A stretch of DNA of 64,000 bases from Shigella phage CT01 (OK018184); one strand, 5' to 3'. Positions 54,182-62,576 are shown, counted from the stretch's first letter. Numbers and translations are program-made. Notes: generated by a model from the sequence alone, not told the origin.

Positions 54182-55146
54182 TGTATTCTTTAGAGGAATT
54201 TAATAATCAAGCAATAAACGCAGATTTCCAACGTAATAATATGTTTAGCTGCGTTTTTGCGACAACTCCATCAACTAAAAGCTCTTCGTTGATAAGTTCA
54301 ATTAGCAACTTTTCCTATAATAACTTGGGCCTAAATTCAGATTGGTTAGGATTGACTCAAGGCGATATTAATCAGGGAATTACTACGCTAATTACTGCTG
54401 GCACACAAAAACTGATAAGAAAATCAGGGGTTAGTAAATATCTTATTGGTGCCATGAGTCAACGTACAGTTCAAAGTTTATTAGGCTCATTTACAGTTGG
54501 TACATATTTAATTGACTTCTTTAACATGGCATATAACTCATCTGGATTGATGATATACTCCGTAAAAATGCCAGAGAATAGATTATCCTATGAAACTGAC
54601 TGGAACTATAATTCTCCTAATATTCGCATAACCGGAAGAGAATTAGACCCTTTGGTTATTTCATTTAGAATGGATTCAGAGTCGTGTAATTATCGTGCAA
54701 TGCAAGACTGGGTTAACGCTGTTCAAGACCCAGTAACTGGACTGCGTGCTTTGCCACAAGATGTCGAGGCAGACATTCAGGTTAATCTTCATGCTCGTAA
54801 TGGATTACCTCATACTGCTGTGATGTTCACTGGATGCATTCCAGTGTCAGTGAGCGCTCCTGAGTTATCATACGATGGAGATAACCAAATAACTACATTT
54901 GATGTTACTTTTGCGTATAGAGTCATGCAGGCTGGAGCGGTTGATAGACAAGCTGCGCTTGAGTGGCTTGAATCTGCTGCTATAAATGGCATTCAAAGCG
55001 TTCTCGGAAATAGCGGAGGTGTTACTGGACTATCTAATTCGCTTTCACGACTTAGTAGATTAGGAGGAACTGCAGGAAGCATTTCAAACATTAATACTAT
55101 GACAGGAATTGTCAATTCGCAAAGTAAAATATTAGGAGCAATATAA
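54181..55146 (+). CDS. 54: baseplate tail-tube initiator gp54
   Basis: 321 aa, T4 gp54 size and position. Confidence 0.75.
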   Translation: MYSLEEFNNQAINADFQRNNMFSCVFATTPSTKSSSLISSISNFSYNNLGLNSDWLGLTQGDINQGITTLITAGTQKLIRKSGVSKYLIGAMSQRTVQSLLGSFTVGTYLIDFFNMAYNSSGLMIYSVKMPENRLSYETDWNYNSPNIRITGRELDPLVISFRMDSESCNYRAMQDWVNAVQDPVTGLRALPQDVEADIQVNLHARNGLPHTAVMFTGCIPVSVSAPELSYDGDNQITTFDVTFAYRVMQAGAVDRQAALEWLESAAINGIQSVLGNSGGVTGLSNSLSRLSRLGGTAGSISNINTMTGIVNSQSKILGAI

Positions 55147-55150
55147 CAAT

Positions 55151-55177
55151 GGGGACCGAAAGGTCCCCATATTTTTA
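55151..55177. terminator. bidirectional hairpin terminator after gene 54
   Basis: ggggaccgaaaggtcccc followed by a T-rich tract, between convergent genes. Confidence 0.55.
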
Positions 55178-55465
55178 TTTACGGAATGAAATAAAAGCAG
55201 CAACTGAAGCAACTAAACTGTCTTCAATATAAACTTCAATTTTTACCGGAGCTTCTGACTCAAATTTACCTGTTACTACACCTTGGAAAATGCTTTCAGT
55301 CTGTTCTGGCTTTGAAAAATTTTCAGAAGGAAAAATTCCGAACTTTTTATCTGTTCCAAAAATTTTGATAAATTCATCGTAAACTGCTTCATTAAAAGCG
55401 TTATCAGCAGGAATAACGCCTTCAACTACGAGTTCTTGACCTAAAAAGCGTAAAGAAGATTTCAT
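55175..55465 (-). CDS. hypothetical protein downstream of alt
   Basis: 96 aa ORF between gene 54 and the alt pair. Confidence 0.45.
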   Translation of the reverse strand: MKSSLRFLGQELVVEGVIPADNAFNEAVYDEFIKIFGTDKKFGIFPSENFSKPEQTESIFQGVVTGKFESEAPVKIEVYIEDSLVASVAAFISFRK

Positions 55466-55525
55466 TTTGTGTTCCTCATGTTATGTCAGTAAAATTATTA
55501 TAACACAACACGAGGGACTTGTAAA

Positions 55526-57583
55526 CTACATTTTGAACTTTTTAGACATTTCGTTGATGTTAACCAAAGAAGCCAAGATTTGAGAAACTTCGTTTTCCTC
55601 TTCTTTTGATTCTTCTACAAGGAATTGATTAAATCCAGCCATTGGACGAACTTCACCAGTTTCCATCAGGTGGTCGCCATCATATACCGATTCTTCTAAT
55701 TGTTCAGAAGGAGGAACGATTGTGCCTTCGATTAGATACTTGTTATAAGCAGTTTCTTTCATCATGTACGTACTCACTTTATTAATCTTCAGTAAAATTC
55801 CACGTGGTAAAATAACTTCAGCTTCTGATGGAAATCCTGATAAATGACCCGGAACGATAACTTTGATTCGCTCAGCTCCTTTAATTACCATACCCACGCT
55901 AGTTTCAGCATCTTCATTCGCATAAGCAGAGTGACTGCCCATATGCATTAAATCTTCAGCATCAACTGAACCTTCTCCTTCACCAGAAAATACTGCACCA
56001 GAATCATCTAGAGCCATATAGTTTTTACCATACTCACCGAAGATATTTGGTTTAAGCGATGTGGATACGAAGTTCTTGAAATAGAACATTTTATTTTCAA
56101 TATTATGACGTAAAGTTTTAAAGGTAACTTCTTGTCCACGGTAAAGTGTAGTTCCTGGAGGAAGAACTGATCCTTTGGCAAAGGCAGAATCCATTGTCTC
56201 GATGTGTTTAATAGCTCGTTCCATGTATTCTTCACGTGTAGAATCTGGTTTACCTAAAAGGAACGAGTTCATTTCAACATATGAATCTGCACAATAATCT
56301 TCAATTACATCAGACTCAGCCTGAGTTAATCCTTTTGGAGTTACTTCAGTACTTGCATATTCATACGCTTGAGAAGCAGACTCATTAATCAATTTATAAA
56401 TGCCATTCATGACAAATTGAATAATAGCTACCTTTTCATCTGGCGTGGCTTTAGAACCTTTAACTAAATCATTGACAATTTTCTTAATAACATCAAAACT
56501 ATTAGAAATATTAATGTCAGCAAGATCGCTTAAAATTTTATCGGTTTTATAATCAAAAAATTCTTTATTCTTTAAATATTCTTGAGAACCTTGATATGTT
56601 ATATCGCTCTGTAACTTGATAGATGGATCACGTAAACGTGCATGAGCCAATGCAATATGATTTCGGAAGCTTTCTAGTTCATAATCACTAGATTTAAAAC
56701 GAGAAGCACTTCTCATACCACCGATAGCTCCTTTGCTGAAGTTTGAACCAACCTGAATAACGCCGGAGTTCATTGGTCCTTCTGCTTTATATACCGGAAC
56801 TTTAGATTCAAACTCTTGATATTTCTTAGCAGCGAAGCTATCACCCTGAAGTGAAGCATCGACAGTAGAGTATTGAGCTTGTGCTGCTAATCGACGACTA
56901 ATTTTAGTTTTCTGAATAACAGCTTGATCCGTGCGCTTATCATTTTCTAAAGCAATAGAAGCAGCAACAGCAACAGCTTTAGGAACAGCATTGCCTGTTT
57001 TAACATCTACATAAACATCACCAACCTTTGATTCAACTTTTGTGAATAACTCAGTTGAAATAGGAGGTACACCTGGAATGTCTTCTAAATTGGCATTTTT
57101 ACGGTAAACCATAATATATGCATATTTCTTATCATAGTCCCAGATTTCTTTTAAAAGAACATATCGACCTGCTCCTTTAGTACGTACTAAACGGTCGGCA
57201 ATAACCTGCATTTGACGAGCTGCGCCATTTGTTTTACTTTTTAGTACGCGGAATAAGCATGCGTCAATTTTATACTGTTTCATTGTTTGAAGAGCAGTAT
57301 CAAAAACGGCATTAATGACACCAATTGGATTTCCACCCAAGTTTTTAAGTTTAACTAATGATAGTTTCTCATTAACACCTATCATTACGATATGCATCAT
57401 TTTATCGCCTGGCTTAACATTTTTATTTGTATCACCACCAGAGGTGTATGTACAAAATCTAAATCCAGGAAGCACACTTTCTTCGCCTGCTTGAATAGCA
57501 AAAATTTGAGGTATTTTATGCTTCGGATTTAAGTTAACAACCGGCGCTTCGGCGCCGTCAAATAATTCTGTAATAAGTTCCAT
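55526..57583 (-). CDS. alt: Alt-type ADP-ribosyltransferase, paralog A
   Basis: 685 aa; N-terminal MELITELFD… with I-x-E site; C-terminal R (TLYRGQ), STS (FVSTSL) and E-x-E (SEAEVILPRG) motifs. Confidence 0.8.
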   Translation of the reverse strand: MELITELFDGAEAPVVNLNPKHKIPQIFAIQAGEESVLPGFRFCTYTSGGDTNKNVKPGDKMMHIVMIGVNEKLSLVKLKNLGGNPIGVINAVFDTALQTMKQYKIDACLFRVLKSKTNGAARQMQVIADRLVRTKGAGRYVLLKEIWDYDKKYAYIMVYRKNANLEDIPGVPPISTELFTKVESKVGDVYVDVKTGNAVPKAVAVAASIALENDKRTDQAVIQKTKISRRLAAQAQYSTVDASLQGDSFAAKKYQEFESKVPVYKAEGPMNSGVIQVGSNFSKGAIGGMRSASRFKSSDYELESFRNHIALAHARLRDPSIKLQSDITYQGSQEYLKNKEFFDYKTDKILSDLADINISNSFDVIKKIVNDLVKGSKATPDEKVAIIQFVMNGIYKLINESASQAYEYASTEVTPKGLTQAESDVIEDYCADSYVEMNSFLLGKPDSTREEYMERAIKHIETMDSAFAKGSVLPPGTTLYRGQEVTFKTLRHNIENKMFYFKNFVSTSLKPNIFGEYGKNYMALDDSGAVFSGEGEGSVDAEDLMHMGSHSAYANEDAETSVGMVIKGAERIKVIVPGHLSGFPSEAEVILPRGILLKINKVSTYMMKETAYNKYLIEGTIVPPSEQLEESVYDGDHLMETGEVRPMAGFNQFLVEESKEEENEVSQILASLVNINEMSKKFKM

Positions 57584-57586
57584 GAT

Positions 57587-59683
57587 TTATCCTTGAACGA
57601 ACTTGTAAGGCATGTTTGTAATATCTATGCAAGACGCAATAATTCCAAGAGATGATTCTACTTTCTGTTTAACGTTTGATGAAACAAATGATGCAAAGTC
57701 AACTCTGTCTTCTACTTCAATATCACCTGTCATTGCAACTACTTCGCCGGTTTCCATTAGACGGTCACCGTCATAAATGACTGATTCGGTGAGTTCTTCC
57801 GTAGTCATAACTTCAGCTTGAATGAGTTTTGTATTATTAGATGTTGTTCCGTCATTATTAGAAGCATCAGTTATTTTATTAACTTTGACCATCAATCCGC
57901 GCGGTAGAATAACTTCAGCTTCAGTTGCTATTCCGAGACTTCCTGGATATACAACATTAACTTTATGAGCTCCATCAATTGCCCATCCTATTTGAACTTT
58001 AACGTATTCAGGATTTTCTTTATACGCTCTTATTTCGTTTGGATTAATAGTTATTCCTTCTTCATTTTTATCAACTGTTAATTCATTACGAGCTTCTGGT
58101 TCTAAAAGACCGATACCAGCATGTGTAATTCCAAAACGTCCAAAAATGATAGGAGTTAAAGAAGTAGATACAAAATTTCTGAAATAGAACACTTTATTTT
58201 TAACTAGCGCTTCGTATATAGGAGCAGTCATACTTTGAGCACGATAAACTGTAATGCCTTCTGGTATACGGTCACCATTTTCAAAAGCTGAATCTAAATT
58301 ATTTATCGCAGATTCAATTTCTTTTTCACTCATTACATCATATCGTTCTGGATTGTAGCGGCCTAAAAGAAGATTATTGATGTCAGTATATCCTGATCCA
58401 CAATACTCTCTAATGCCGCGCTTTTGCGATGGAGTATATTTAGAACCATCACGTGCAATGGTAATATCAATCATTGGACCTGCACCAATTCCAGAAAAAC
58501 TATAAATCATTCGTTTGAGGAATTTAGTTTTTGCTGCGTTCCAGGAATTTTTAGTTATTTCTTCCCAGACTTCATCTGGCTGCCCTTTACGAGTTTTATT
58601 ATGTTTATCAAGCCAATTATCTTTATATTCTTCAAAGAATTGATTAACAGCTGCTGCGTATTTCTCTAAACATTTTATTGAAGTAGTTGGTTCATTTTTA
58701 ATCGCATTAAGAATTACATCTTTAATTTTTTCAGAAACTTCATTAACCTCACTTTTTGAAAAGAATTTATAGTCATAGTGAAGTTCATCTGCGGTTCCTT
58801 CGGCAATAATTTTTGCTGCCTTAGTTTTAGAAGCTAATGAATTAATTCCAAGCTTCATTTCTTCTGCTTCTGGAATTAAAGGAGCAGTAGCAGGTTTATT
58901 AAAATTAGCTGCGGTAGATTCATACTTCTGAAATAATTCACTTTCAAATCTAGAAGATTCTAATGATTGACTTTGTGCAATTGCTCTACGGGAAATTTTA
59001 ACTTTAACTATTACAGCTTGGTCAGAACGTTTATCATTTTCTTGCGCAATAGATGCTGCAATTGCTTCATTTTTAGTTACTTGAGCTCCAGTATCTTTAT
59101 TGATATAAACATCGCCGACCTTCGATTCAACTTTAGTAAAGAGCTCGGTACTAATTTCCGGAACTCCTGGAATGTCTTCTAGTGATACATTTTTGCGATG
59201 TATAAGAATATATGCATACTTTTTATCATAATCCCAGAGTTCCTTAAGAAGGACGTATCTGCCACCTGAACGACTACGGATAAGTCTATCAGCAATAAGT
59301 TGAATTTGTCGAGCTTGACCAGCAGTTTTAGACTTAAGAATACGAAGCATGCAGGCATCAATTTTATACTGACGCATCGTCTGCATTGCAACAGTAAAAA
59401 CTGAATTGATATAATTAATTGGGCTTGGACCGAGACCTTTCAATTTAGCAATTGAACCTTTAGCAGTTAATGTAAAAGGAACAATGTGCATCATTTTATC
59501 GCCCATCTTTAGATCACGGTTAGTATCACCTCCAGATGTATAGGTACATAAACGAAAGCCTGGTTGTTCAATTGCGTCATCAACATGAACTGAAAAAATT
59601 TGCGGTATTTTCTTCTTTGGATTTAAGTTTGTAATCGGAAGAGTAGTATCTTCGTCAAATAATTCTGTAATGAGTTCCATCAT
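57587..59683 (-). CDS. alt: Alt-type ADP-ribosyltransferase, paralog B
   Basis: 698 aa; same N-terminal ~230 aa family, diverged middle, C-terminal TVYRAQ / FVSTSL / TEAEVILPRG; 3-bp gap to paralog A. Confidence 0.8.
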   Translation of the reverse strand: MMELITELFDEDTTLPITNLNPKKKIPQIFSVHVDDAIEQPGFRLCTYTSGGDTNRDLKMGDKMMHIVPFTLTAKGSIAKLKGLGPSPINYINSVFTVAMQTMRQYKIDACMLRILKSKTAGQARQIQLIADRLIRSRSGGRYVLLKELWDYDKKYAYILIHRKNVSLEDIPGVPEISTELFTKVESKVGDVYINKDTGAQVTKNEAIAASIAQENDKRSDQAVIVKVKISRRAIAQSQSLESSRFESELFQKYESTAANFNKPATAPLIPEAEEMKLGINSLASKTKAAKIIAEGTADELHYDYKFFSKSEVNEVSEKIKDVILNAIKNEPTTSIKCLEKYAAAVNQFFEEYKDNWLDKHNKTRKGQPDEVWEEITKNSWNAAKTKFLKRMIYSFSGIGAGPMIDITIARDGSKYTPSQKRGIREYCGSGYTDINNLLLGRYNPERYDVMSEKEIESAINNLDSAFENGDRIPEGITVYRAQSMTAPIYEALVKNKVFYFRNFVSTSLTPIIFGRFGITHAGIGLLEPEARNELTVDKNEEGITINPNEIRAYKENPEYVKVQIGWAIDGAHKVNVVYPGSLGIATEAEVILPRGLMVKVNKITDASNNDGTTSNNTKLIQAEVMTTEELTESVIYDGDRLMETGEVVAMTGDIEVEDRVDFASFVSSNVKQKVESSLGIIASCIDITNMPYKFVQG

Positions 59684-59703
59684 ATCCTCTCTAGTGTTTA
59701 TTC

Positions 59704-59711
59704 TATTTATA
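59704..59711 (-). promoter_or_regulatory. late promoter TATAAATA (minus strand) upstream of alt paralog B
   Basis: plus-strand TATTTATA about 20 bp upstream of the alt-B start. Confidence 0.5.
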
Positions 59712-59716
59712 AAATT

Positions 59717-59734
59717 AAAGGCCCGAAGGCCTTT
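59717..59734. terminator. hairpin aaaggcccgaaggccttt
   Basis: perfect GC-rich hairpin between the 62-aa ORF and the alt promoter. Confidence 0.4.
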
Positions 59735-59921
59735 AATAATCTAATGGTAAGAGAGTACGATATATTTCAAACTTTGGCCCTTTTTCATAGGCATCAAATG
59801 TTTCTGTAAATTTATTATAAGCATATGCATCTACAAATTCGAGAATGACTTGTGATACAGAAGTAGAAACATCTCCACCTTCTTTTTGAGCTATAACAAT
59901 TGTTTCTAAGTAAGCTTTCAT
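59733..59921 (-). CDS. small hypothetical protein
   Basis: 62 aa ORF; start overlaps the ligase stop. Confidence 0.4.
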   Translation of the reverse strand: MKAYLETIVIAQKEGGDVSTSVSQVILEFVDAYAYNKFTETFDAYEKGPKFEIYRTLLPLDY

Positions 59922-61378
59922 AGACCAGTTACCTCATGAAAATCACCAAATACATCCTCGAATGTATTAGCTTTAGTTTTATCTTCACGTAAACGAATCG
60001 CAATCGGAAGAAATAATTTAACGTAATCAGTGCGGCCATCAGATTTTAACCAACCGTTGCATTCGCACTCTAGAATTTTTCCAATATAATAATTTTGGTT
60101 TTCCATAATGCGAGTACGGTCAAGTTCATGTGATTTTACACCAGCTTTATCTTTTAAACCTGAACCAGCATTTACCTTAATTTTTCCACACTCTGATTCA
60201 AGAATAAATCCACCTGCTTTAGTAGGGTCTTTACGGTGAGGATAAATTCCTACAATTTTTAAATCAACATCAATTACTTCTTTAAATTTATAGAGATTTT
60301 TTGAACGAGCATTTTCCCACAATCCATCGGTATTTTTGAGAATAATACCTTCAAGACCTCGGTCAATATATTTTTTATAAATTACCTTAGCTTCATCTAG
60401 GTTATTTACTACCTGGTTTTCAATTAAAATTACTTTATCATATCCTGATGTCATTTGTTCTAGTTTAGAAAAACGTACATCATATTTTAAACGAAACGCC
60501 GGAAGACCGTATATTTCTACCAACGGGACATAATCCCAGACCTGAAACTTCATACATTTGGCTTCTTTTTCTGAAATAGTTCCCTTTAAAGATTTATTGG
60601 CGATTCCATTAGAAGCAGTACGAGATTCAGCTACTTCAGCAAACTCTTTAACTTTACTATTTTCAGGAGAGTCAAAAAGAAAATCTAGGCCTTCTGGCTC
60701 CTTTTCAACTTGCTCATGGTATACCAATTCGCCATCAATTAACACACCTTCTGGATGAATCTGGCGGGCTTCAGCAGTCATTTTGATTAGATCTTCCTTA
60801 AGAAGATCTAATCCTAGATATTCATTACCAGCTCGCGATAAAAGACGAACATCATCTAATTCATCGCCTCGGACTTCAGCAAAACACCGAGCTCCATCTG
60901 CTTTTAACTGCGCAAAAGCTGGAAACTTGATATTCTTACTAATGCCTTTTTCATCATAAGAACTTGCCAGCATTTGAGGTTGTTCAGGAATTAAACCTGG
61001 CCAAACTTTGTTTGCAATAGATACTGAAGCACCACATTCAAGGTCTCGCATCATAACTCGACGCAAAACTTCAACATCATCCTTTTTACCATCGGTGATA
61101 TATCCAGTTAATTCCTCAATTGCTGCATTGCCAGTTAATTTCCGAGTAGCTAACGTGAATTCAATGAAGTCAAGCATATCGGTAATAGTCAGCATTCCAA
61201 AACTCTGGGTAGCAATACCAGGTTTAGGCCATTTCTTGATATAATACTGTAACCCACGAGAATAAGTCAGACGATATACTCGTTTAAGCAATTCATTATC
61301 TTTATTCTTTTCAAGAATTGCTTGCTTCTGCTTAGTTGAACCAATAGATGCTATTTCATTTAGAATTTCAAGAATCAT
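59918..61378 (-). CDS. 30: ATP-dependent DNA ligase gp30
   Basis: 486 aa; adenylation motif KADGARC; T4 gp30 size. Confidence 0.9.
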   Translation of the reverse strand: MILEILNEIASIGSTKQKQAILEKNKDNELLKRVYRLTYSRGLQYYIKKWPKPGIATQSFGMLTITDMLDFIEFTLATRKLTGNAAIEELTGYITDGKKDDVEVLRRVMMRDLECGASVSIANKVWPGLIPEQPQMLASSYDEKGISKNIKFPAFAQLKADGARCFAEVRGDELDDVRLLSRAGNEYLGLDLLKEDLIKMTAEARQIHPEGVLIDGELVYHEQVEKEPEGLDFLFDSPENSKVKEFAEVAESRTASNGIANKSLKGTISEKEAKCMKFQVWDYVPLVEIYGLPAFRLKYDVRFSKLEQMTSGYDKVILIENQVVNNLDEAKVIYKKYIDRGLEGIILKNTDGLWENARSKNLYKFKEVIDVDLKIVGIYPHRKDPTKAGGFILESECGKIKVNAGSGLKDKAGVKSHELDRTRIMENQNYYIGKILECECNGWLKSDGRTDYVKLFLPIAIRLREDKTKANTFEDVFGDFHEVTGL

Positions 61379-61644
61379 TGCTCATCCTTCAAGGTTTGGT
61401 TTACAGCTCTATTATAAATCAATTCATCATTAAGCTCAGGCAAAGACTTATGATATGTAGTTCTAACTTTATTTCCTTGCATCCAGTGCTTGACGTAAAT
61501 GAAACCTTGCTCTACACATTTTTTAAAAATTCGTTCATCCTTTTGAGCACGGAACTCTGGATTACATCTAAAAAATTGATTTACGTGACCGTAATCACGT
61601 GTAGTATTACCTTCATTTTCATAAATAGTATGAACAACAAACAT
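61375..61644 (-). CDS. hypothetical protein (30.1 position)
   Basis: 89 aa ORF coupled to the ligase start. Confidence 0.45.
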   Translation of the reverse strand: MFVVHTIYENEGNTTRDYGHVNQFFRCNPEFRAQKDERIFKKCVEQGFIYVKHWMQGNKVRTTYHKSLPELNDELIYNRAVNQTLKDEQ

Positions 61645-62576
61645 TAGAATGCTCCTTGAAAAATATTATCACCACTAGTAGGTCTATTATACAAATACTC
61701 TATGCCACCAGGTTTAATATAGTTCCATGTCTGAAACGGATGTGTCTGATATGGATGATATAGATGATTATTAGGTCTATTATACAAATACTCTATGCCA
61801 CCAGGTTTAATATAGTTCCATGTCTGAAACGGATGTGTCTGATATGGATGATATAGATGATTATAAGGATTTAATCCAGGCGTTCTCCAGGTAGTGTTCC
61901 AAGGAAAAGAATCGTTTTTAACCATCTTCTCAATTAAATCTTTTATAGCTTTTTCACTATCAAAACTTTCTTTATTTTCCTTCGGCGAAAAAAGCTTATT
62001 TTCTACATCATTCCATGTATAAACTCGCTGCGCAGTTTTTGGAATATTGTCACGCTCTCCTCGAGCCATCCAATAAACAGGAACATTTAATATTTCACTC
62101 GCATGATCGCAGTGATGAGCGAGATCGTCAATATAACAAATTACGTTATATTTCTCTTTTGCCTTTTTGAACAGCTCTTCTTTTGAAGAATCATGACCAC
62201 ACATCATTACTTCCGAGAAAGCACCAGGAAAAAGAGCATTCAAATTAAATTGACGATTCAACAGAGCGTCAATAGAATCACCCAATGCTGTAACAGCTAC
62301 AAAATTATAATCTTCTTTTAATTTGTTAATTACACACAGGGCATCTTTATACGGAGACAAGTAACGAATAAAATCTGAACGATTGTATTTTTCAATTAAC
62401 TTGACGCCAAGTTCTTCGTCACAATTAAAGAGTTTACCCGGAGAAATAAATTTCTCATCTTGGATCATTTTTAAAATATGTTCTAATGGAAGATTATATT
62501 TCTGAGCAAAATAAGGAAGGCCTGATTGCCAGCTTAAACATACTCCATCAATATCAGTTAAAATAGTTGGCTTCAT
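61644..62576 (-). CDS. HAD-superfamily nucleotidase-like protein with duplicated C-terminal motif
   Basis: 310 aa; HAD motif I DIDGV near the N-terminus, YIDDLAHH later; C-terminus has a 31-aa Tyr/His/Pro-rich unit twice. Confidence 0.5.
   Translation of the reverse strand: MKPTILTDIDGVCLSWQSGLPYFAQKYNLPLEHILKMIQDEKFISPGKLFNCDEELGVKLIEKYNRSDFIRYLSPYKDALCVINKLKEDYNFVAVTALGDSIDALLNRQFNLNALFPGAFSEVMMCGHDSSKEELFKKAKEKYNVICYIDDLAHHCDHASEILNVPVYWMARGERDNIPKTAQRVYTWNDVENKLFSPKENKESFDSEKAIKDLIEKMVKNDSFPWNTTWRTPGLNPYNHLYHPYQTHPFQTWNYIKPGGIEYLYNRPNNHLYHPYQTHPFQTWNYIKPGGIEYLYNRPTSGDNIFQGAF
61681..61866. repeat. 93-bp in-frame tandem duplication inside the HAD-like gene
   Basis: 61681-61773 and 61774-61866 are near-identical direct repeats (ggtctattatacaaatactctatgccaccagg…). 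Confidence 0.8.

Follow-up and report, generated by a model that had tools for sequence, protein, structure and literature searches.

Textbook accounts of host takeover by T-even phages derive from T4, with one packaged ADP-ribosyltransferase (ART). A stretch of 64,000 nucleotides (nt) from Shigella phage CT01 (OK018184), called the window hereafter, carries two full-length Alt-type ART genes in tandem, alt and alt2, and raises the question of what a second enzyme of this kind does and how T4 came to be without it. Our comparisons of sequences, together with one structure model, make it likely that both products are arginine ARTs that are made late, packaged in the head, trimmed by the prohead protease gp21 and injected, and that they act on different targets.

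Two diverged Alt paralogs in tandem

The window belongs to the genome of a T-even phage (Tequatrovirus), and its positions 55100-60000 match Shigella phage SF2-1 at 99.8% identity and hundreds of Tequatrovirus records at 97-98%. Two long minus-strand open reading frames (ORFs) lie there, flanked by gene 30 (DNA ligase)/alt.1 and by alt.-3/gene 54 (Table 1). The initial annotation, made from the sequence alone, described two tandem genes of 685 and 698 amino acids (aa) with a 3-bp gap; the pair, its coordinates and the gap stand, and the longer protein is corrected to 697 aa. The 698-aa ORF reads MMELITE at its N-terminus, and we assign the alt start to the second ATG (59680), because T4 Alt and the SF2-1 annotation begin there and the spacing to GAGG is better.

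The two proteins are diverged Alt-type ARTs, as that annotation had proposed. BLASTP aligns them over their full length at 41% identity (E = 6e-162), and both match the Pfam family PF03496 ADPrib_exo_Tox (cut-off 23.4 bits), Alt2 with E = 2.6e-20 (73 bits) and Alt with E = 1.9e-37 (129 bits). Both also span the whole profile of phrog_802, 'Alt-like RNA polymerase ADP-ribosyltransferase' (Alt2, E = 1.6e-255; Alt, E = 1.1e-272), and GenBank annotates both genes as Alt-like. An NCBIfam search returned no model matching Alt or Alt2. PF26846 Tevenvirinae_ADPRT was not reported for either window protein in the Pfam search; homologs with 88-98% identity to Alt2 have it as a precomputed assignment.

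The divergence is unevenly distributed. Over residues 1-235 the paralogs are 68% identical, in agreement with the shared N-terminal ~230 residues first noted, and the C-terminal tails are 42% identical. The ART domains (residues 416-625) retain 37% identity and the central regions (residues 240-415) 19%. The R, S-T-S and E-x-E motifs proposed for both proteins are borne out by alignment, and neither paralog lacks a catalytic residue. These motifs and their adjoining residues are invariant across a 22-sequence alignment of Alt-family proteins that are 41% to 98% identical to Alt2. The stretch from STS to ExE is unalignable among Alt, Alt2 and T4 Alt; together with the low central identity, this upholds the strong divergence claimed for the central region and the surroundings of the catalytic motifs.

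An AlphaFold (AF2) model of Alt2, with a predicted local distance difference test score (pLDDT) of 74.8, displays four parts: an N-terminal domain of alpha/beta type, a middle made of helices, the ART domain and, past residue 629, a disordered tail. Foldseek matches the modelled ART domain to Vis, C3bot, CDTa, iota, VIP2 and Certhrax at E = 1e-7 to 1e-4, with probability 1.00 and template-modelling (TM) scores to the target of 0.55-0.68. The model was made for Alt2 alone, and the ART fold of Alt rests on its Pfam score. A sequence search of solved structures with Alt gave weak matches (E = 4e-4 to 9e-3) to CDTa, iota and related toxins, which cover the helix preceding the catalytic Arg.

E-x-E is the signature of arginine-type ARTs in the ADP-ribosylating turn-turn (ARTT) loop, and the STS-to-ExE loop of C3-like ARTs carries substrate-contacting elements. 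Because the helical middle and this loop are almost unrelated between Alt and Alt2, their target sets may well differ.

Table 1. Coordinates of the features of the alt locus in the window
Feature	Position	Strand	Basis or remark
alt, 697 aa, T4 Alt ortholog	57587..59680	-	ORF listing extends to 59683 (698 aa) via an extra upstream ATG
alt2, 685 aa, second full-length Alt paralog	55526..57583	-	homology; GenBank names include 'alt.-2', Dhakavirus counterpart 'altb'
Alt2 hexapeptide MELITE with gp21 site I-T-E6	57566..57583	-	motif match
Alt2 N-terminal domain (aa 7-235)	56879..57565	-	Pfam name in near-identical homologs PF26846 Tevenvirinae_ADPRT; 68% identity to Alt domain
Alt2 central all-helical region (aa 240-415)	56339..56866	-	19% identity to Alt; candidate target-recognition module
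Alt2 ART domain (aa 416-625)	55709..56338	-	PF03496 match, Foldseek matches
Alt2 catalytic Arg482 (motif LYRGQ)	56138..56140	-	alignment
Alt2 S507-T-S509	56057..56065	-	alignment
Alt2 E587-A-E589	55817..55825	-	alignment
Alt2 L629-E-E631 then Ser, predicted C-terminal gp21 site	55691..55699	-	alignment
Alt2 predicted acidic propeptide, residues 632-685	55529-55690	-	disordered in model
Alt catalytic Arg480 (motif VYRAQ)	58241..58243	-	alignment; pairs with CDTa motif 'TVYR'
Alt S505-T-S507	58160..58168	-	alignment
Alt E587-A-E589 (ARTT loop)	57914..57922	-	alignment
Alt L630-T-E632 then Ser, equivalent of T4 Alt LTE-619	57785..57793	-	65 residues beyond are the predicted C-terminal propeptide
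alt variable effector cassette (~aa 240-588)	57916..58960	-	diverged from T4 allele, synonymous divergence (dS) 1.2-1.3
alt ART module (~aa 406-616) common with IME08 altA	57832..58462	-	91.8% nt, 96% aa, dS 0.35
T4-type late promoter TATAAATA	59704..59711	-	21 nt upstream of alt start codon; sole exact copy on the strand in 55400-60000
Stem-loop AAAGGCC-TTCG-GGCCTTT then T-run	59717..59734	-	between alt.1 stop codon and late promoter
AAGGA ribosome-binding site for Alt2, within last alt codons	57590..57594	-	alt stop TAA 57589-57587, Alt2 ATG 57583-57581
Early-type sigma-70 promoter TTTACA-17-TATAAT (11/12 matches, with TG)	55497..55525	-	begins directly after Alt2 stop codon; drives alt.-3 (55175-55465)
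Upstream CTAAAAAGT direct repeat copy, Alt2 codons 114-117	57236..57244	-	sequence comparison with T4
Downstream CTAAAAAGT direct repeat copy, Alt2 codons 680-683	55537..55545	-	sequence comparison with T4

Predicted processing sites and packaging

T4 Alt is a head-core protein present at ~40 copies per head (PMC9958956), and gp21 cuts it at ITE-6 and LTE-619 to a mature form of 68.2 kDa, as determined by mass spectrometry (PMC5694885). The I-x-E site of gp21 type that had been proposed at the N-terminus was found in both window proteins as ITE6. A second, C-terminal gp21 site is predicted in each as well, which adds support to the probable packaging of Alt2. Both motifs are present in Alt and Alt2 and in the Dhakavirus proteins altA and altB, which have LNE and, followed by Ser, LQE or LSE.

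At the level of sequence and model, both have one layout: a cleavable hexapeptide ending in ITE comes first, followed by the N-terminal domain specific to the family, the helical middle and an ART domain of the C3/VIP2 type (R-STS-ExE), with an acidic propeptide last, behind an L-x-E site followed by Ser. Because of this layout with its cleavable ends, Alt and Alt2 are predicted to be built into the prohead core and trimmed by gp21 at both ends, to ~70.2 and 69.1 kDa respectively, sizes at which they are expected nearly to co-migrate on a gel. The predicted mature Alt2 spans residues 7-631, from Leu7 to Glu631. Both would then remain in the head until they are injected along with the DNA. In the new host, as suggested by their E-x-E motifs, they would mono-ADP-ribosylate arginines.

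Expression signals

The late promoter motif TATAAATA is enriched in the window (22 copies, where 9.7 would be expected). Ahead of alt2, neither a late promoter, exact or near, nor a middle promoter with a MotA box was found, and alt contains no late or MotA-type promoter; the sole MotA-like match (56858) falls within alt2. Sigma-70-like matches are not above the level of shuffled sequence (17 vs 18.4). On these grounds a promoter of its own for alt2 was rejected. We infer a single late alt-alt2 transcript, in which the one late promoter upstream of alt would drive both genes and Alt2 would be translated from the ribosome-binding site within the end of alt.

The stem-loop ahead of the late promoter is likely the terminator of the upstream early unit, and Yersinia phage fPS-65 has a terminator annotated at the equivalent position. 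The equivalent of the early-type promoter behind alt2 is likewise annotated in fPS-65, as a predicted early promoter. Beyond it, between gene 54 (plus strand) and alt.-3 (minus strand), a hairpin at 55149-55170 with a 9-bp GC-rich stem and T-runs on both strands is a likely bidirectional terminator, and is annotated thus in fPS-65.

The two-gene locus among T-even phages

The initial annotation implied that the arrangement was rare. The opposite was found: it is the majority state among T-even phages, already annotated and mentioned in the literature. Full-length Alt2 is encoded in 399 of the 497 Tequatrovirus records that match alt2, at 93-99.6% nt identity. T2 and T6 each have a pair of 685 and 697 aa, and in the records of RB6, RB32, RB51 and ime09 the full-length gene is labelled 'alt.-2'. 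In Dhakavirus IME08, altb and alta stand in tandem in the slot between alt.-3 and alt.1. The Alt N-terminal domain itself was found at 1,819 places in 1,201 phage records. Paralogs of alt were listed by Nolan et al. 2006, with one full-length in phage 44RR (PMC1524935), and a 2026 paper on phage 6phi13 reports two Alt-like paralogs of 43% identity (PMC13600099). The tandem Alt pair is therefore an already known, ordinary annotated state of T-even phages and no new kind of system. Its second gene is less well served: our literature search for functional or proteomic work on this paralog found descriptive mentions alone, and no functional characterisation.

The small flanking genes carry unreliable GenBank product names, such as 'double-stranded DNA-binding protein' for alt.-3 (SF2-1) and 'siderophore-interacting protein' for alt.1 (T6). 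Several names given to neighbouring genes in T2 and T6 seem to have nothing to do with the locus, e.g. 'high-light inducible protein', or 'terminase large subunit' in the case of a 95-aa ORF. Further away, 93 bp are duplicated exactly in tandem (2.0 copies, 98% match) at 61679-61868, inside the minus-strand ORF 61644-62576, a homolog of gene 30.2. It repeats ~31 aa (NHLYHPYQTHPFQTWNYIKPGGIEYLYNRP) near the C-terminus, and the protein has 310 aa in the window, compared with T4 (278 aa) and SF2-1 (287 aa).

The Alt2 remnant in T4

The single full-length alt given for T4 in the initial annotation is correct: T4 alt encodes 682 aa and is accompanied by the small ORFs alt.-1 and alt.-2. These two ORFs (NC_000866, 5066-5451) do not align to T4 alt; their match is Alt2, with 94.8% nt identity over its first 348 nt. 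Thus T4 alt.-1 (NP_049810) and alt.-2 (NP_049809) are, by this comparison, the same gene as Alt2, broken by two lesions. The first is the loss of one A from an A-run (~57424 in the window), which shifts the frame at codon 54. The second is a deletion of 1,699 bp exactly between two 9-bp repeats CTAAAAAGT, as recombination between the two copies yields. The tail of alt.-2 (SLQVPRVVL; last 10 codons) is read from the promoter region past the Alt2 stop codon.

A 121-nt probe over the T4 junction matched 91 records at 96.7-100% identity, field isolates among them. As judged from these junctions, T4 and ~18% of its relatives have lost Alt2 by a defined deletion, and alt.-1/alt.-2 are the remnant of a full-length Alt2, not a partial duplication. 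In this sense a more precise wording can be given to the GenBank note 'an old duplication of the first part of gene alt'.

Selection and exchange of effector cassettes

Alt2 has a ratio of nonsynonymous to synonymous divergence (dN/dS) of 0.02-0.08 over its whole length, with dS up to 0.33. By this measure it is an old conserved paralog under strong purifying selection and not a recent duplicate.

The alt gene itself has a composite history. Compared with T4, the Alt N-terminal domain (dS 0.15, 99% aa identity) and C-terminal tail (dS 0.30, 94% aa identity) can be set beside the flanking ligase and gp54 controls (dS 0.14-0.16, 96% nt identity), whereas the central and ART regions are saturated (dS 1.2-1.3) and only 32% and 66% identical in aa. 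The window-type Alt allele occurs in 316 of 538 records (~60%), and T4-type records match just 51-58% of the window alt gene. The relation to IME08 is the reverse: ligase and gp54 (61-64% nt identity) and the rest of alt (54-67%) all have a saturated dS above 2. Because the ART module has a dS of 0.35 while the IME08 ligase, gp54 and remaining alt exceed 2, the comparison points to a later exchange of this module between the genera Tequatrovirus and Dhakavirus.

In the central, ART and tail regions the proteins cluster by type, Alt together with alta and Alt2 together with altb. The identity of altb to Alt2 is 45/58/64% over these three regions, vs 14-39% to the other type, and we conclude from these alignments that altb is the Alt2 ortholog. 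The N-terminal domains, on the other hand, group by genome (67-68% identity within a genome vs 42-46% across genera). Recent gene conversion is not supported as the source of the similar N-terminal domains, since between paralogs these domains have a saturated dS (1.7) and alt and alt2 have no exact match longer than 19 nt. Older conversion or shared constraint is possible. We propose that the locus evolves by swaps of effector cassettes between constant delivery ends.

Hybrid genes provide a further view of the tandem pair. Four database proteins (genes on contigs L011, 5001-7055; L012, 5001-7061; L013 and L014, 3501-5561) are clean chimeras of an Alt N-terminal part and an Alt2 C-terminal part. 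Across the set, the switches fall at ~aa 54, 108, 190 and 222. ERZ27282683 and SRR24155011 are among the hybrid contigs. Nucleotide breakpoints were mapped for two of them, at nt 150-159 in L012 and nt 546-558 in L011, each within identities of 8-11 nt. Two of the four contigs, one of 109.8 kb from the European Nucleotide Archive (ENA) and one of 65 kb from Logan, carry the hybrid as the sole alt gene between alt.1 and alt.-3; the other two stop right after the hybrid gene. Such single-gene hybrids are known from metagenome and Sequence Read Archive (SRA) assemblies alone. The junction of L011, the sole one probed, was not found in isolate genomes, where the best match had 90% identity over 82% of the probe. 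A k-mer collapse appears unlikely as their source, because the breakpoints lie in 8-11-nt identities and exact matches between alt and alt2 reach no further than the 19 nt given above. The hybrids look like products of unequal recombination within the tandem pair.

As a separate observation, in EC121, BW-1, ECP2301 and Sfk20 the alt query matches in two pieces that span 2.67-2.77 kb, not 2.1 kb. These records may have an alt with inserted or rearranged sequence, or the similar N-terminal parts of the paralogs may have been joined artefactually.

Comparison with known systems

T4 Alt (NP_049811, 682 aa) is a head-packaged, injected arginine mono-ADP-ribosyltransferase that makes use of nicotinamide adenine dinucleotide (NAD), and Aravind and colleagues placed Alt among head-packaged effectors (PMC9503650). 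The window Alt is its ortholog, in the slot between alt.1 and alt.-3. Overall identity is 72%, with 99% over residues 1-236 and 94% in the C-terminal tail. The two have in common the ITE-6 and LTE gp21 sites, the R/STS/ExE motifs and the late promoter, and differ in the central and catalytic cassette. Alt2 resembles T4 Alt in domain order and motifs, and is 41-42% identical overall to either Alt type. IME08 altA (YP_003734339) and altB (YP_003734338) have the tandem arrangement of the window, but their N-terminal domains differ from those of the window pair and group by genome.

With the R-S-E toxins of PF03496 (C3 exoenzyme, VIP2, iota-Ia, CDTa and Vis) the window proteins have in common the ART fold and the R, S-T-S and E-x-E motifs. 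The N-terminal inactive adaptor domain of ART fold that marks the binary-toxin A components (VIP2, iota-Ia and CDTa), and by which these bind a pore-forming B component, is not found in them. T4 ModA and ModB are likewise phage R-S-E ARTs, which hit host transcription and translation proteins (PMC10468400). Unlike Alt and Alt2, they are small, are made early, after infection, and lack both the N-terminal domain of Alt and gp21 sites, and no Mod family is among the PHROG matches of either window protein. The constant ends and exchanged effector middle of the alt locus recall the logic of polymorphic toxins and polyvalent effectors. This is an analogy and not membership, as the locus has two slots and differs from polymorphic toxins in having no immunity genes and no Rhs/PAAR or secretion-system domains.

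Discussion

That the window carries the ancestral two-gene alt locus is the best explanation of our results. The larger question is whether its two products are both injected and act on different targets, as we think likely. Several observations weigh against this. Virion mass spectrometry of SH7, a two-gene phage, detected the alt product by 2 peptides and did not detect Alt2 (PMC5238451). This is the sole virion proteome we found in the literature for a phage with both genes; the dataset is shallow, with 13 structural proteins and the ADP-ribosylase (PMC5238451), and the detected protein was assigned to alt, not alt2, by coordinate match. A phmmer search of solved structures with Alt2 found none at E < 0.01, the Alt2 ART domain being more diverged than that of Alt. 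The STS-to-ExE loop of Alt2 is acidic, and its model confidence, with means over 10-residue blocks mostly at 57-76, is below that of the ART core on either side. The arginine specificity that E-x-E would confer follows a rule carried over from other ART families. Finally, Alt2 is dispensable, as T4 and 91 records lack the full-length gene.

These points give some room to other explanations. The low identity of the central region (19%) and of the ART domain (37%), and the unalignable STS-to-ExE loop, leave only a small chance that Alt2 is a redundant dosage copy, packaged and in essence active on the targets of Alt (Arg265 of RNA polymerase alpha and a broad substrate set) as extra enzyme or backup. 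Such a copy would agree with the common architecture, processing motifs and catalytic residues, with the success of T4 without Alt2 and with the multi-substrate nature of T4 Alt (>30 host proteins are reported for the three T4 ARTs together; PMC10468400). It would not be expected to keep both effector lineages separate across two genera under strong purifying selection.

Alternatively, Alt2 may have ART activity without being part of the virion; it would be made late and act in the producing cell, or act on phage components or on another class of substrate, either nucleic acid or, as with ModB, in the transfer of NAD-capped RNA. We judge this as improbable as redundancy. The SH7 result is what it predicts, the Alt2 ART domain has an unusual acidic insertion, and T4 ARTs can use NAD-RNA, Alt weakly (PMC10468400). 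Yet Alt2 keeps the ITE site, the N-terminal domain and the L-x-E site with Ser and propeptide, features that in T4 Alt are tied to head incorporation and gp21 processing, and alt2 is located in the late operon of alt; other substrates are also hard to reconcile with the arginine-type signature E-x-E. It is very improbable, and disfavoured by the selection data, that Alt2 is a duplicate in decay or without catalytic activity, carried along as a structural part of the head core and heading to the T4 state: T4 proves that the gene can be lost and the natural single-gene hybrids reveal a recombinationally unstable array, but the ORF is intact in 399 records, dN/dS is low over the whole length, and R, STS, ExE and their neighbouring residues are invariant in the family alignment.

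The reading of two injected enzymes with different targets can be carried one step further, which we do tentatively and with considerable doubt. Alt2 might be an injected effector with a target of its own, not RNA polymerase but, say, a host protein of defence or translation, and might have been missed because T4 lost the gene. The alt locus would then be a two-slot array in which exchangeable effector cassettes sit on constant modules for head delivery.

To conclude, the value of our findings lies in a cleaner account of the alt locus, in the origin of T4 alt.-1 and alt.-2, and in the cassette structure. By inference, most relatives of T4, T2, T6 and the RB phages included, inject two packaged ARTs, and ~60% of the relatives (316/538 records) carry an Alt catalytic cassette other than that of T4, which itself is a natural alt2 null and in which these genes are non-essential. 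T2, T6 and the RB phages are widely used in anti-phage defence testing. If Alt2 has its own targets, it would be an unstudied effector of the first minute of infection, and part of the contrast between T2/T6 and T4 in how they take over the host, or in how sensitive they are to defence, could stem from Alt2 and from the alternative Alt cassette.

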